Assembly (NCBI GenBank): GCA_963764035.1
Contig: CAVXQV010000011.1
Location: forward strand, 105,042-169,041
Direction of reading: 5' to 3'
DNA: 64,000 bases
Source: an uncultured Verrucomicrobiae bacterium
Lineage (GTDB): Bacteria; Verrucomicrobiota; Verrucomicrobiia; Limisphaerales; UBA11358
This document shows positions 21,282-52,848 of the stretch, one piece after another. The first letter of the stretch is position 1. Every line of letters begins with the position of its first letter. The translations under genes and the position numbers were made by a program. The notes below the pieces were generated by a model. That model was not told where the DNA came from. It ran no database searches and saw only the letters and a program-made list of their open reading frames with translations.

Positions 21282-21594
21282 CGCCCGCGCCGCTGAAGGG
21301 TCGCAGACGATAACGCGAAGTGCAAGGCGGAACGAAAATCGGCGCGGGCGCATATCAAGATTTGAGGGGGTATCAGTGATGGAAAACTCTCGAATTGACA
21401 ACCATTTCATTAACACCCTGTTTTAGCCGAATCCAAGTAGTTGAAATTGCCCTTCGGAGGCATGAGGGTTGGCTGGAAGGTTCTCCGGCCCGTGCCTGCC
21501 CGACCGTATTTAGTCCAGCCGCACTGCTCCAAAGGTCAAATCCCAAAAATTAGAGGGGTTTCAGCCAAAACCGGCATTCATTCCTTCGGCATTG

Positions 21595-21850
21595 GAGCAC
21601 ACTCTTTCGCCGTTCGAGCGCGCTCTTTTCGCGTGGGAGCATGCTCCCGCGCCGTTCGCGTGCGCTCCCACCGCGTTGGAGCGTGCTCTATCGCCGCGGG
21701 AGCACACGCCTGCGGCGTGGGCGTGCGCTCTTTTCCCGTGGGCGCATGCTCTTTTCCAAAAAGAGCACACTCTTTTCCCGTTGGAGCGCGCTCTTTTTCC
21801 GTTCGAGCATGCTCTTTTCCCGTTGGAGCATGCTCTTTTTCCGAAAGAGG
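21595..21850. repeat. Degenerate tandem array R2, unit exactly 21 bp, 12-13 units
   Basis: Consensus GGAGCRYGCTCTTTTCCCGTT, containing the 10-bp palindromes GAGCATGCTC and GAGCGCGCTC. GAGC or its variants sit at 21595 + 21n for n=0..12, with no indel. All three + frames and two - frames are open. Confidence 0.88.
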
Positions 21851-23370: not shown

Positions 23371-23542
23371 ATGCGCGCGGCGCATCTATTTCGGATTTTC
23401 GCGCGGGCGTTAAACCCGCGACGGCGGGATGGCGGCAGACATTTTTTCGGCTCGCGGCCGGCGGATTAAGCTGTTATACACGAGACGCAAGCATGAACAC
23501 TTTCTTATCACGCCCGGCCGGCAACACAACTCCATTCCAATT

Positions 23543-24625
23543 ATGAAAACCAAAATCGGCATCGTGACCGGCGGCGGCGACTGCCCCGGGCTGAACACCG
23601 TCATCCGCGCCGTGGCCAAGGCCGCGGCCAAACGCGACTGGGAAACTCTGGGCATCATCGGCGGCTACGCCGGGCTGCTGGAGCCGCGCCAGTATCGCGT
23701 GCTGGATTACCAGGCGTTGAGCGGACTGCTGACGCGCGGCGGCACCATCCTCGGCACGGCGAATCGCGGAAAATTCTCCGCCAAGACCGGCCACGGCGAG
23801 GGCCGGCGGCTGCCGAAGGAATTGCTGGACGAGACCCGCGCCGGCATGGATGCGCTGGGGCTGTCGGCGCTGGTGTCGGTGGGCGGCGACGGCTCGTTGA
23901 GCATCGCCCAACAGATGCACGAGCACGGCATCCCGATTGTCGGCGTGCCCAAGACGATTGACAACGACCTGCACGGGACAATGATGACGTTCGGGTTCGA
24001 CTCGGCGGTGGCCTGCGCGACGGACGCGCTGGACCGGCTGCACACGACCGCCGAGAGCCACAACCGCGTGATGGTGCTGGAAGTGATGGGGCGTTATGCG
24101 GGCTGGATCGCGCTGTATGCCGGCGTGGCGGGCGGCGCGGACGTGATTTTGATTCCGGAAATCCCGTTCACCTACGAGAGCATCTGCGCCAAGGTGAAGG
24201 AACGCGAGGGCCAGGGAAAACAATTCACGCTGGTGGTGGTGGCGGAAGGCGCGCGCGAAAAGGGCGGGGGCTTTGTCACCTCCGGCGGCGCGGAGGCGAA
24301 CCGCGAGGCGCACCTGGGCGGCATCGGCGCGGTGGTGGCGGCGGAACTCGCCAAGCGCACGGGCAAGGAAACGCGGAACTGCGTGCTGGGCCACCTCCAG
24401 CGCGGCGGCAGCCCGACGACCTTTGACCGCGCGCTGTGCTCCATGTTCGGCGCGACGGCGGTGGAACTGGTGGCGGCGGGCGAATTCGGGAAGATGGTGG
24501 CGTTCACGGGGGCCGGCGTGGCGGGCGTGGCCATCAGCGAAGCCGTGGGCCGGCTCAAAACGGTGCCGCCGGAAGGCAATTTGGCGCGCACGGCGCGTGC
24601 GCTGGGGATTTCGCTGGGTGACTGA
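23543..24625 (+). CDS. pfkA: 6-phosphofructokinase (ATP- or PPi-dependent)
   Basis: Motifs: IVTGGGDCPGLN, VGGDGS, PKTIDNDL, EVMGRYAGW. ATG at 23543. Confidence 0.88.
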   Translation: MKTKIGIVTGGGDCPGLNTVIRAVAKAAAKRDWETLGIIGGYAGLLEPRQYRVLDYQALSGLLTRGGTILGTANRGKFSAKTGHGEGRRLPKELLDETRAGMDALGLSALVSVGGDGSLSIAQQMHEHGIPIVGVPKTIDNDLHGTMMTFGFDSAVACATDALDRLHTTAESHNRVMVLEVMGRYAGWIALYAGVAGGADVILIPEIPFTYESICAKVKEREGQGKQFTLVVVAEGAREKGGGFVTSGGAEANREAHLGGIGAVVAAELAKRTGKETRNCVLGHLQRGGSPTTFDRALCSMFGATAVELVAAGEFGKMVAFTGAGVAGVAISEAVGRLKTVPPEGNLARTARALGISLGD

Positions 24626-27779: not shown

Positions 27780-28737
27780 ATGAACCTGGAAGACCTGAAG
27801 AAGATCAACGTGCTTGGCGCGCATGACGACGCGGCGCTGGCGCGGCTCGGCGCGGTTTTGGCGTCCCGCGAGTTTGCCGACGGCGAAACCATTTTTGCGG
27901 AAGGGTTCGCCCGGCGACGGCATGCATTTCATCTCGAGCGGCGCCGTCCGCATCGAGAAACAGACCGGCGTTGCCGGTGGGATCGCGAAGACGCTGGCCG
28001 TGATCGAGGCGGGCGATTATTTCGGCGAGATGTCGCTGTTCGACCAGCAGCCGCGGTCGGCCTCCGCCGTGGCCGCCGGCCGCACGCAGACCTTTTGGCT
28101 GTCCAAGGCGGCGTTCGACGACCTGCCGAAAGCCGGGGGCCAGGCCGGCATGGGCGTGTTGTTCGGGATGATCCGCACTTCCAGCGAACGCATCCGGCGG
28201 CTGAACCGGCAGGTGATTGTCTATGACGAAATCGGCAAGGCCATTGGCGAAGCGACCGGTCTGCAGCAACTGCTCGACGTGATGGCGCGCCAGCTTTGTC
28301 TCGGCACGCTGGCGGATTGGGCGATGGTCCTGCTGCGGGCGCAATTCTCCGACCGGGTCGAAGTCCGCAGTTGCGTCAACCTGCAGTTGACCGCGGCGCA
28401 ACGGGAGGCGCTGGAGGACGGCGCGGGATTTTGGACGGCAGTCCTGCGCGAGCCGGGCGACCGGTTGGTGCGGGACATCACGCAGGAAGAGCCGTTCAAG
28501 TCCGGAACGGGCCTCGGCTTCGAGACCCCTGCGCTGCTGCTGGCGCCGATCCGGATCGAAAGCCAGTCGCTGGGGCTGCTCGTCTTGGGCGGCAGGCAAG
28601 CCGGCCAGTTTGATGCGAACGACCTGAACCTCGTCCGGGGCGTGGCGCGGCAGGCGGCGCAGGCCATCGTAAACGCGCGCCACCGCGAGGAAGAGGCGGC
28701 GCGGACGCGGCACGCCAAACAATTTGTCCGATTTTGA
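27780..28737 (+). CDS. Cyclic-nucleotide-binding domain + GAF-like domain protein; one frame break near 27905
   Basis: cNMP-binding motifs: FADGETIFAEG then SPGDGMHFISSGAVRIEK, YFGEMSLFDQQPRSASAVA. The C-terminal half is GAF-like (ALLLAPIRIESQSLGLLVLGG). The pieces lie in ORFs 27654..28226 and 27814..28737. Confidence 0.7.
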
Positions 28738-28892
28738 AGCGCCCCGGAGAAGGGGCGAAGGTGCGGGGTGTTGCGTTGCCGGATCTTTCACAGGGCGAGC
28801 CACGCGCCCCGTTGCCCCTGCGGAATGCGGATTCCGTCAAATACATAAACATAATCCCAAAGAAATGGGGATTATGCACTTGACGGAAGTTT

Positions 28893-29098
28893 CCCTCGCC
28901 CCGCCCAAGCGGGGAGAGGGTCAGGGTGAGAATTCTCCGAACCCCATTTCGCGCTTTGAACCCCTGCAACCTCAAGATGCGCAAGTCGCTGATAATCAAG
29001 TTGGCGATCTTGAGGTTCATGGGGAGGGGATTTCATTTTTCAATTGAAATCAGCGCCACCTCACCCCAGCCCTCTCCCCCGCTTCGCGGCGGAGAGGG
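28893..29098. repeat. Composite REP-like element with two CCCTC(T/G)CC...GGAGAGGG hairpins, copy 1 of 2
   Basis: Hairpins at 28893..28920 and 29070..29098, joined by ...TTTTCAATTGAAATCAGCGCCACCTCACCCC. The same arrangement occurs inverted at 42525..42635. CATAATCCCAAAGAAATG occurs twice nearby, around 28850 and 29140. Confidence 0.75.
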
Positions 29099-29211
29099 AG
29101 GATTTCCGCGTATCATCTTAATTTTACGTCAACGACATAATCCCAAAGAAATGCCATTTTTGCCATTTTCCAGCTAAATCACCTGTTTTCAGCCAGTTCC
29201 AGCGGTTTTTG

Positions 29212-29484
29212 GATGTCGCAAAATCATTTTGGGACATCCCCCCGGAGTTTTGGGACATCGCAAAGCCAGCTCGTGACATCCCATCGTCGTTTCGCGACGT
29301 CGCACCCCTGGCTTGGGACATCCCAAAACCGCGGTGAGACATCGCGAAATCCTGGCGCGACATCCCGCCGGCGTCTCGGGACATCGCAAAGTTGGCGGGT
29401 CAGATCCCGGCGTCGTTCCGCGACATCGCACCCTTGGCCTGGGATATCGCAGGGCCGCTTTGGGACATCGCCGCCTGGTTTCCT
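29212..29484. repeat. Degenerate tandem array R3, 21-bp phase with 42-bp and 126-bp higher order, 13 units
   Basis: GACATC or variants sit at 29212 + 21n for n=0..12. Units mostly alternate GACATCCC and GACATCGC. Units 2-7 resemble units 8-13 pairwise. The array ends 95 nt before the kinase start. Confidence 0.88.
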
Positions 29485-29578
29485 CCATTTCGCTTTGAAC
29501 GACCGGCGGCTTGACGTAATTTATCGCCATGCAAACCCGACGGACCCGTCCGGCCATTGAGCCCATCAGGAGGGAGCC

Positions 29579-33519
<3,941 letters not shown>

Positions 33520-40533: not shown

Positions 40534-40900
40534 TCAAGTGGCTGTCAACTAACCGGTTGCCGGGTATGGCAGTGGGCAAGTTGAATTCAACTGACGGTCT
40601 GCCATGTATGGGAGGGGGCAAGTTGAATTCAACTGACGGTCTGCCATGTATGGGAGGGGGCAAGCTGGATTCAACTGATGGGTTGCCATGTATGGGAGGG
40701 GGCAAGTTGGATTCAACTAACGGTCTGCCATGTATGGAGGGGGCAGTGGATCAACTGATGGGTTGCCATGTATGCAGGGGCGAGTTGGATTCAACTGACG
40801 GTCTGCCATACATGGCAGGGGGCCAGTTGAATTCAGCCAACGCCCTTGGCGGTGTCAAGGGAGGGGGGTTGAGACCGGCTGGCGTGCCGGGCGACGGCGG
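40534..40900. repeat. Tandem array R4, 42-bp unit (2 x 21), about 9 units, decaying at both ends
   Basis: Unit GGCAAGTTGAATTCAACTGACGGTCTGCCATGTATGGGAGGG, with the palindrome GTTGAATTCAAC and the near-palindrome CCATGTATGG. GAATTC/GGATTC sits at 40583, 40625, 40667 and 40709. Later units carry small indels. Confidence 0.88.
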
Positions 40901-52342: not shown

Positions 52343-52663
52343 CTAAACCAACTCCAGCCGCAGCACGCACAGGCCGCAATCCACCGTGGCTTCGCCGGGC
52401 GTCGGCAGCCGTTGCGCCGGGATCTGGTATAGATGCGCGTGCGCCCGCACCACCAAACCGGCGGCGTGCAGCTTGGCCACGTGCTTGGACGTCATGTCCG
52501 CGCTGCACCCCACGGCCCGCGCAATTTCGAGGACCATGTGCGGCTGGCCGTTGGACAGTTCTTTGAGGATCCGCCAGCGGACGGGATGGCTCAACGCCGC
52601 CGCGAGTTTGTTCAGTTCCGGCAACGTCGTTGCCGCCGTCGTTTTTGCGGTTTCTGTGGTCAT
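52343..52663 (-). CDS. ArsR/SmtB-family transcriptional regulator
   Basis: LAAALSHPVRWRILKELSNGQPHMVLEIARAVGCSADMTSKHVAKLHAAGLV. The ATG at 52663 is preferred over the ORF-track start at 52732. Confidence 0.8.
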   Translation of the reverse strand: MTTETAKTTAATTLPELNKLAAALSHPVRWRILKELSNGQPHMVLEIARAVGCSADMTSKHVAKLHAAGLVVRAHAHLYQIPAQRLPTPGEATVDCGLCVLRLELV

Positions 52664-52848
52664 AAATCGCGGTTTGTCAGGGAAAAACTCGATTTCGCCT
52701 GAATCAGATGTATTTACAGAATAAAGCGACATATTGTCAAAGGAAAAATATCTAGTCTCGGACTAAATGGATGTCGAGTAGTGATATATGTATGTATTCT
52801 ATGAATATATAAACGTCCTCTATTTGGGAGACGGTTTACGCTCTAAAT

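Follow-up and report, generated by a model that had tools for sequence, protein, structure and literature searches.

Rows of short protein-binding sites occur at plasmid replication and partition loci. The iterons of R6K and RK2, parC of R1 and pSK41 and sopC of F comprise 4-12 short, often dyad-symmetric sites which, in iterons and type Ib/II centromeres, are spaced by 20-22 or 43 bp and cooperatively load a dimeric protein onto one face of the DNA; such arrays adjoin the cognate Rep or Par gene, and there is one or a few of them per replicon. Helical phasing upstream of the core promoter is likewise characteristic of BvgA at ptx and fha, of the MetJ met boxes and ArgR boxes, and of upstream curved DNA, where geometry carries about as much weight as sequence; the known phased operator arrays have 2-6 sites and use one regulon-wide motif. 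Among dispersed intergenic repeats, BrickBuilt of Porphyromonas gingivalis is a minisatellite MITE built of a leader, 23-nt units and a tail and located always between genes (Klein et al. 2015, PMC4596501), and the palindromic REP/BIME and REPIN sequences are repeated in large numbers between genes (Di Nocera et al. 2013, PMC3733652).

Array R3 lies at positions 29206-29478 (plus strand) of the window, that is, of the whole 64,000-nt stretch analyzed here, which comes from an uncultured Verrucomicrobiae bacterium (genome G000; 4.56 Mb in 13 contigs, 59% G+C). It consists of 13 units of exactly 21 bp each, with the consensus TTTG-S-GACATC-S-CA..TCGT and not a single phase slip. The preliminary description placed a GACATC-type hexamer at 29212 + 21n for n = 0 to 12, and this regularity is borne out: cutting the array every 21 nt yields GATGTC, nine GACATC, GACGTC, CAGATC and GATATC. 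Self-identity is 0.50-0.70 at lags of 21, 42, 63, 84, 105 and 126 bp, compared with a mean of 0.25 and a maximum of 0.35 at the other lags up to 140 bp; Tandem Repeats Finder did not detect R3. The longer-range order that had been proposed turned out to be of two kinds. Units six apart are 70% identical versus 57% in unit-order shuffles, a value reached by 1 of 5000 shuffles (0.02%), which identifies the 126-bp order as a genuine duplication of six units, relating units 2-7 to units 8-13. The suggested 42-bp alternation of GGGACATCCC-type and GCGACATCGC-type palindromes, by contrast, is weak overall (0.615 vs 0.574, attained by 7.7% of the shuffles): what survives sits mainly at a single position, directly after the core, where C and G alternate (...ATCCC / ...ATCGC) in units 1-10, and no mirrored alternation is present in the left flank of the core.

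The leader-proximal end of R3 is marked by a 29-bp palindrome (29211-29239; 14-nt arms, 93% complementary) that spans units 1 and 2 and arises from an inverted first unit, GGATGTCGCAAAAT-C-ATTTTGGGACATCC. This palindrome is retained in both R3 paralogs described below, and a perfect 31-bp version is found at C5:578672. A longer, imperfect palindrome of 60 bp (29290-29349; 29-nt arms, 79% complementary) has its center in the core of unit 5 and is an expression of the quasi-dyad symmetry that characterizes the entire array. When the 36 units of R3 and both paralogs are considered together, conservation is highest at G3, G5, A6, A8, T9 and C12 (1.45-2 bits), as against 0.3-0.7 bits in the spacer.

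Sliding autocorrelation of the whole genome showed that R3 is one of many such arrays. We detected 116 arrays with a period of 21 bp, 141 with 42 bp and 101 with 63 bp, and most of the other periods between 6 and 69 bp, including 15, 18, 24, 27 and 30 bp, were represented by one array or none; the exceptions are 19 arrays at 41 bp, nine at 51 bp and five each at 45 and 69 bp. Merging gives approximately 170-186 arrays spread over all 13 contigs, and the 186 merged regions amount to about 50 kb, or about 1% of the genome. Within the window, arrays R1 (2414-2594), R2 (21594-21849) and R4 (40545-40835) belong to the same class as R3, each with a different unit; the leaders of R1 and R2 are T-rich, different yet related, and lie on the right-hand side of the arrays, pointing leftwards. 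The period is shared and the sequence is not: grouping the 167 usable arrays by the sequence of their units yields 109 clusters (consensus match at 16 or more of the 21 positions), the largest of which has at most four members, and shuffled consensus sequences never reached the similarity that defines a cluster. Dyad symmetry of the units is more frequent than in shuffled units, with at least 8 of 10 symmetric pairs in 13% of the arrays versus 1.7%.

The register of these arrays is closely kept. Neighboring units are often only 55-70% identical, and the 2118 unit-to-unit steps include just 10 one-nucleotide phase slips, a count obtained after merging adjacent segments and from arrays found by their periodicity, a procedure that is biased against arrays that have lost phase. 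In non-coding bacterial DNA, small indels usually stand to substitutions at about 1:10; the slip ratio is far below this, an argument for constraint on the register. In young, homogeneous arrays the period could be preserved without selection if whole units turn over by unequal recombination.

Two groups of paralogous genes stand out among the neighbors of the arrays. The first is a family of 28 proteins of about 220 aa with an FN3-like C-terminus (e.g., G000:C6:107406-108062 and C10:158013-158672) and no match in Pfam or PHROG: it is enriched among the array-neighboring genes (21/28, p = 4e-11), and a 21-bp array lies 140-500 bp upstream of 22 of the 28 paralogs. The second comprises small regulators of the ArsR/HTH_20 type, such as G000:C5:162407-162787 and C11:157384-157773 (window 52343-52732), eight of nine of which have a 21-bp array 0-138 bp upstream of, or overlapping, the called start. 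Three more families of small proteins of no assigned type show the same pattern as the FN3-like family.

R3 does not begin abruptly. The 60-70 nt upstream of it match the flanks of other arrays in the genome and define a conserved leader, family F1 (29137-29219, plus strand; ..TTTTTGCCATTTTCCAG CTAAATCACCTGTTTTCAGCCAGTTCC..), which adjoins the 5' side of the array in a fixed register, and which is recovered by the covariance model of the leader (G000:C11:134178-134260, E = 5e-14). From 26 aligned leaders we derived the F1 consensus ..TTTTTGCC.TTTT..G.CTAAA...CT..TTTTCAG...GTTCC.., in which TAAA and TTTTCAG are invariant. The arrays behind this leader have unrelated units: GACATC in R3 and two others, and elsewhere TTCAAnnTTGAA, CACGTCAnTGCG, GCAACCGGGTGGTTGC, CCGACATGGG and CACGnnCGAA. 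The module thus defined has two parts, a leader of about 70 nt with a conserved sequence and, behind it, 8-20 units, each of exactly 21 bp. The sequence of the units is almost free from one module to the next, whereas their period and their register to the leader stay constant. Many F1-led arrays have an A/T-tract dyad (AAAATCATTTT or GAAAnCnTTTC; AAAnCnTTT) between the variable cores, and, measured from the leader, the center of this dyad has one common phase in 15 of 20 modules and is at most 1 nt off in 19 of 20; R3, with its dyad at phase 5, belongs to the 15. Even a subfamily with 84 nt, exactly 4 x 21, between the leader and the array proper keeps the phase of the A/T dyad. The period and the leader phase are thus constrained, a few positions are conserved in each unit within an array, and between arrays the sequence is almost completely free. 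In several arrays (G000:C2:30296-30674, C6:108229-108548 and C13:486643-486990, as well as L068 and L071), the units on the leader side are near-identical and those at the far end degenerate, a polarity that could mean growth or homogenization at the leader end.

The two other GACATC arrays, at C4:~138120-138440 (minus strand) and C4:277642-277990 (plus strand), are paralogs of R3 unit by unit: both have the F1 leader, a first unit in inverted orientation and the unit order of R3. Their identity to R3 is 74-77%, and they depart from it by whole units only. The three copies are followed by unrelated genes, namely a histidine kinase, one resembling RluA and, facing the opposite way, an ECF-sigma-like one, the last two named from reading of the sequence. 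In R3 itself, the array lies between the genes for a cNMP/GAF protein (for which an exact-protein look-up returned no record) and for a sensor histidine kinase (29579-32341, plus strand), a neighbor that is not part of the element, and the array ends 95 nt before the kinase start at 29579, as originally stated. The kinase had been described as a hybrid; Pfam assigns it the architecture 4HB_MCP-HAMP-GAF-PAS-HisKA-HATPase_c and finds no receiver domain in residues 800-920, so it is a sensor histidine kinase whose hybrid nature is unconfirmed.

Comparison with homologous loci indicates how R3 came to lie there. Homologs of the kinase N-terminus were collected from 80 metagenome loci (49-73% identity). 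In 79 of them the available sequence extends 250 nt or more upstream, and a search up to 900 nt from the gene found no 21- or 42-bp array at any of these 79. One of the loci, L261, is syntenic with ours (T2SSE ATPase, hypothetical protein, cNMP/GAF protein, kinase), and its spacer between the cNMP/GAF and kinase genes measures 127 nt, compared with 841 nt here; R3 is therefore an insertion. The promoter-proximal part of the L261 spacer aligns with 29490-29578 of the window (plus strand), which accordingly represents the ancestral spacer, and the extra DNA consists of a single-copy stretch of about 120 nt, a MITE-like repeat of about 285 bp and the R3 module. The REP hairpins that had been noted in this spacer of about 840 bp are indeed present and belong to the MITE-like repeat (28860-29145), a separate dispersed sequence with 7-22 copies in the genome that abuts the R3 leader upstream. 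This repeat has inverted ends, GGGATTATG...CATAATCCC, each with a CCCTCTCC/GGAGAGGG hairpin, and is flanked by the direct repeat CATAATCCCAAAGAAATG at 28850-28868 and 29136-29154. Few orthologs of the kinase were found within the genus; the copy in G004 has a different sensor domain and is not accompanied by an array. In G004 and on metagenome contig L207, a related kinase directly follows a homolog of the window gene 23429-24625, and the T2SSE, hypothetical and cNMP/GAF genes are missing.

The retained ancestral segment contains a putative kinase promoter at 29495-29522, with a candidate -35 element TTGAAC (29495-29500), a 16-nt spacer and a candidate -10 element TAATTT (29517-29522), followed by the Shine-Dalgarno sequence AGGAGGGAG. 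The putative -35/-10 pair resembles the promoters of the tRNA genes of this genome (TTGACA-N17-TAnnnT) and falls below the threshold of the promoter scan; a search of 28600-29700 for promoters and terminators returned none. About 15 tRNA genes cluster within 5 kb on the same contig, outside the window (G000:C11:3851-8501). R3 ends about 10 nt 5' of the putative -35 element, and regulators are encoded nearby, two circumstances that would suit a dedicated operator array of the kinase at which one of these regulators binds GNGACATCNC. The preliminary description had implied such a link to the kinase and the neighboring regulators. The comparative data largely refute it: R3 is one of some 170-186 arrays, the paralogous arrays with the same core adjoin unrelated genes, the leader also stands before unrelated arrays, both here and in other genomes, and the array is missing at the 79 homologous kinase loci and in the syntenic relative. 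Absence from syntenic relatives is what the preliminary description itself had named as evidence against its proposal and, as far as sequence can tell, it is what we observe. We consider a dedicated kinase operator very improbable.

An open frame of 115 codons runs across R3 (29213-29560, plus strand), which we read as not coding. A translated leader peptide of heptad repeats that controls the kinase by coupling would account for some of its features: the frame stops just 5' of the kinase Shine-Dalgarno sequence, 18 nt before the kinase ATG, the ATG in the first unit is kept in all three paralogs, and the period is a multiple of 3. This ATG, however, is merely the inverted core, the corresponding frames of the paralogs end far from genes or face away from the next gene, and the frame of R3 has no Pfam match. 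Open frames are common throughout the class, being present in 156 of 169 arrays versus 115 +/- 5 in column shuffles, and this excess follows from the genome-wide depletion of TA, which is observed at 0.41-0.43 of expectation in arrays and other intergenic DNA alike. Stop trinucleotides are not appreciably rarer in arrays (frequency 0.0234) than in other intergenic DNA (0.0262), and the 27 oriented modules have open frames on the leader strand in 25 cases and on the opposite strand in 25. In the non-coding DNA of this genome, TAG occurs at 0.24-0.26 of expectation; because of the TA and TAG depletion, open frames are frequent in non-coding DNA and gene callers can be misled. A crude ORF call covered 42 of the 186 arrays. 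A coding constraint alone would, moreover, also permit periods of 15, 18 and 24 bp, and the essential absence of these and of the other multiples of 3 (27 and 30 bp) speaks against coding. The array modules do not show the sense-strand-specific open frame with translational coupling that is expected of MIRU-like elements. In view of the TA depletion and the strand symmetry we reject a coding reading of the arrays; R3 is non-coding, and translational control of the kinase by its frame is extremely improbable.

A further alternative is that the module is transcribed, the leader acting as a non-canonical promoter and the array as a non-coding RNA or long 5' leader that works through hairpins or self-complementarity. 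RNA of such a quasi-palindromic array could fold back on itself, and R3 folds modestly better than its shuffles (z = -2.4 for the plus strand and -3.65 for the minus strand); in addition, a related type of leader, found at R2 and C1:538400, offers, by eye, a better match to a promoter, TTGACC-N17/18-GAAAAT. Against this, position 2 of the -10 hexamer is not an A in the F1 leader, RNAalifold predicts no pair and hence no consensus structure for the leader alignment, and no consistent terminator follows the arrays, with T5 in five and A5 in five of the 27 modules. Many cores, of the type GGGA-CA-TCCC, are unable to form stable hairpins, a period equal to the helical repeat of DNA has no obvious meaning for RNA, and the Rfam scan of R3 returned only a chance snoRNA match (E = 0.64). 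Inspection by eye, against the tRNA promoters of this genome and the consensus sequences, revealed no fit of the leader to a sigma-70, sigma-54, sigma-28 or ECF promoter or to an IHF site. We regard an RNA-level role as quite unlikely; the module would appear to work as DNA rather than as RNA or protein.

The distribution of the leader is narrow and patchy. The sequence-only covariance model finds 12 copies in G000. Beyond G000, 22 of 150 genomes of the genus have 1-8 copies each, and elsewhere in the order the model matches one of 148 genomes, from another family, where both readable matches are followed by arrays. When the leader pattern was matched with no or one mismatch in 163 species of the same GTDB genus (genus and family being the same here), nearly all matches were followed by a 21- or 42-bp array; matches with two mismatches occurred at the rate of the reversed-pattern control and were mostly without an array. 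A scan of genome contigs with the same pattern is dominated by chance matches from AT-rich phyla and served solely as a negative control: among the matches listed, the chance matches in other phyla were without arrays. In G011 and G046, both members of the genus, 179 kb and 160 kb of sequence, respectively, contain no 21-bp array, and a DNA search with R3 in 40 relatives gave no match outside its own genome. R3 represents one lineage-specific insertion of a non-coding element that is modular, dispersed and restricted to certain lineages: it occurs in a patchy subset of one soil and peat genus of Verrucomicrobia and in at least one other family of the same order.

Such a distribution is what one might expect of a selfish or neutral mobile element, and this is the main rival of the reading we favor. 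Here the leader would be the part required for mobilization, the array a by-product of unequal crossing-over, and the period inherited from a common ancestor rather than selected, with no function for the host. BrickBuilt, with its leader, 23-nt minisatellite and tail in strictly intergenic positions, provides the precedent (PMC4596501). Consistent with such an origin, the modules are dispersed, multi-copy and located beside unrelated genes; R3 was inserted into a short ancestral spacer that was also hit by the MITE-like repeat; the species range is patchy (22/150 genomes of the genus, and none in the G011 and G046 sequence); F1 modules (n = 11) are oriented towards the next gene in six cases and against it in five; and positions between convergent genes are not avoided by the arrays (18% observed vs 16% expected). 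Yet no transposase is linked to the modules, and terminal inverted repeats and target-site duplications were not seen by eye at the ends of R3-type modules: comparison of the ends of R3 and its two paralogs revealed no inverted repeats, and the tail repeats the CTAAA box in direct orientation. The greater weakness of the selfish reading is that neutral decay should break the phase of old, diverged arrays, which it has done at only 10 of 2118 steps at unit identities of 55-70%; furthermore, the register between leader and array is fixed across species and core positions are conserved, both of which indicate constraint, and arrays are enriched 5' of paralog families (22/28 FN3-like and 8/9 ArsR-type). 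On balance, a selfish minisatellite element is rather unlikely.

We favor, at about an even chance, the view that R3 is a DNA-level element which is read largely by its geometry, as a phased row of protein sites, as coherently bent DNA or as both, anchored by the leader. Geometry is favored because the two-turn period is the sole property common to all arrays. Twenty-one base pairs correspond to two helical turns, and all units would consequently face the same side of the DNA. A dimeric protein might load at two-turn intervals and spread onward from the leader and the long proximal palindrome, which would nucleate or anchor it; alternatively or in addition, an intrinsic bend in each unit would add coherently along the array and produce a bent DNA arm with a fixed rotational setting. 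The regulatory nucleoprotein array envisaged in the preliminary description thus stands as the best class of explanation, given that the helical phasing is strict and that core positions are conserved; for its tie to the kinase and the nearby regulators we found no support. On the geometric reading, the module could modulate the kinase promoter merely by virtue of its landing site, not by origin; any effect on the kinase probably arises only because the module landed beside its promoter. Several observations weigh against our preferred reading. There are too many unit types, 109, for each to have a regulator of its own; only a minority of the arrays show strong dyad symmetry; the exact extended R3 unit occurs at no site in the genome outside the three paralogous arrays, with no sign of a single-site regulon; and the leader is unconvincing as a sigma-70 promoter when set beside the tRNA promoters of the genome. 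It is possible, and we put it forward tentatively, that a genome-wide system reads geometry in place of sequence, namely the exact two-turn period, the quasi-dyad units and a rotational setting fixed with respect to the conserved leader, with one factor, or curvature itself, recognizing more than 100 unrelated repeats, and with the module serving as a portable device that shapes local nucleoid structure or promoter activity at whatever site it enters. A bacterial system of this type is not known to have been described.

If the constraint is real, the arrays mark a reader of DNA shape, or a nucleoid or promoter architecture, that was not known before, in an abundant and little-studied soil phylum. 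The modules also suggest a simple design rule, namely a leader followed by n x 21 bp, and carry a warning for genome annotation in that such arrays should not be taken for locus-specific operators, small RNAs or repeat proteins. Full-text literature searches found no published description of an array class of this kind.

Set against the systems described at the outset, the R3 class shares single features with several of them. With plasmid iterons and centromeres it has in common rows of sites at whole helical turns; R3 can nevertheless be rejected as a plasmid iteron, centromere or origin, there being no adjacent Rep or Par gene and more than 150 arrays on 13 contigs. Nor is R3 a CRISPR, given units of 21 bp as opposed to repeats of 23-50 bp and given that the parts between the cores are themselves repeated, including the 126-bp duplication, and are not unique spacers. 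Phased operators differ from the arrays described here, in which 8-20 units with motifs peculiar to each array follow a portable leader. REPs, which resemble the R3 class in being abundant, intergenic and palindromic, are hairpins of 20-40 bp with a family-wide sequence and a RAYT transposase, unlike the strictly periodic R3 class with its variable sequence (PMC3733652). The nearest published element is BrickBuilt: both it and the R3 modules comprise a leader, gapless tandem units close to two helical turns and a tail, and both are multi-copy, intergenic (mostly so in the case of the modules) and confined to a narrow range of hosts (PMC4596501). Like an element of the BrickBuilt type, the R3 modules are multi-copy, intergenic and polymorphic for insertion; they do not share one common unit, the 167 arrays forming 109 clusters. 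BrickBuilt, for its part, has a single repeat sequence, small inverted-repeat ends and 19 copies per genome (PMC4596501), whereas the modules of this genome number some 170-186 arrays with about 109 unrelated units, adhere strictly to 21 bp and hold their leader in helical register with the array.
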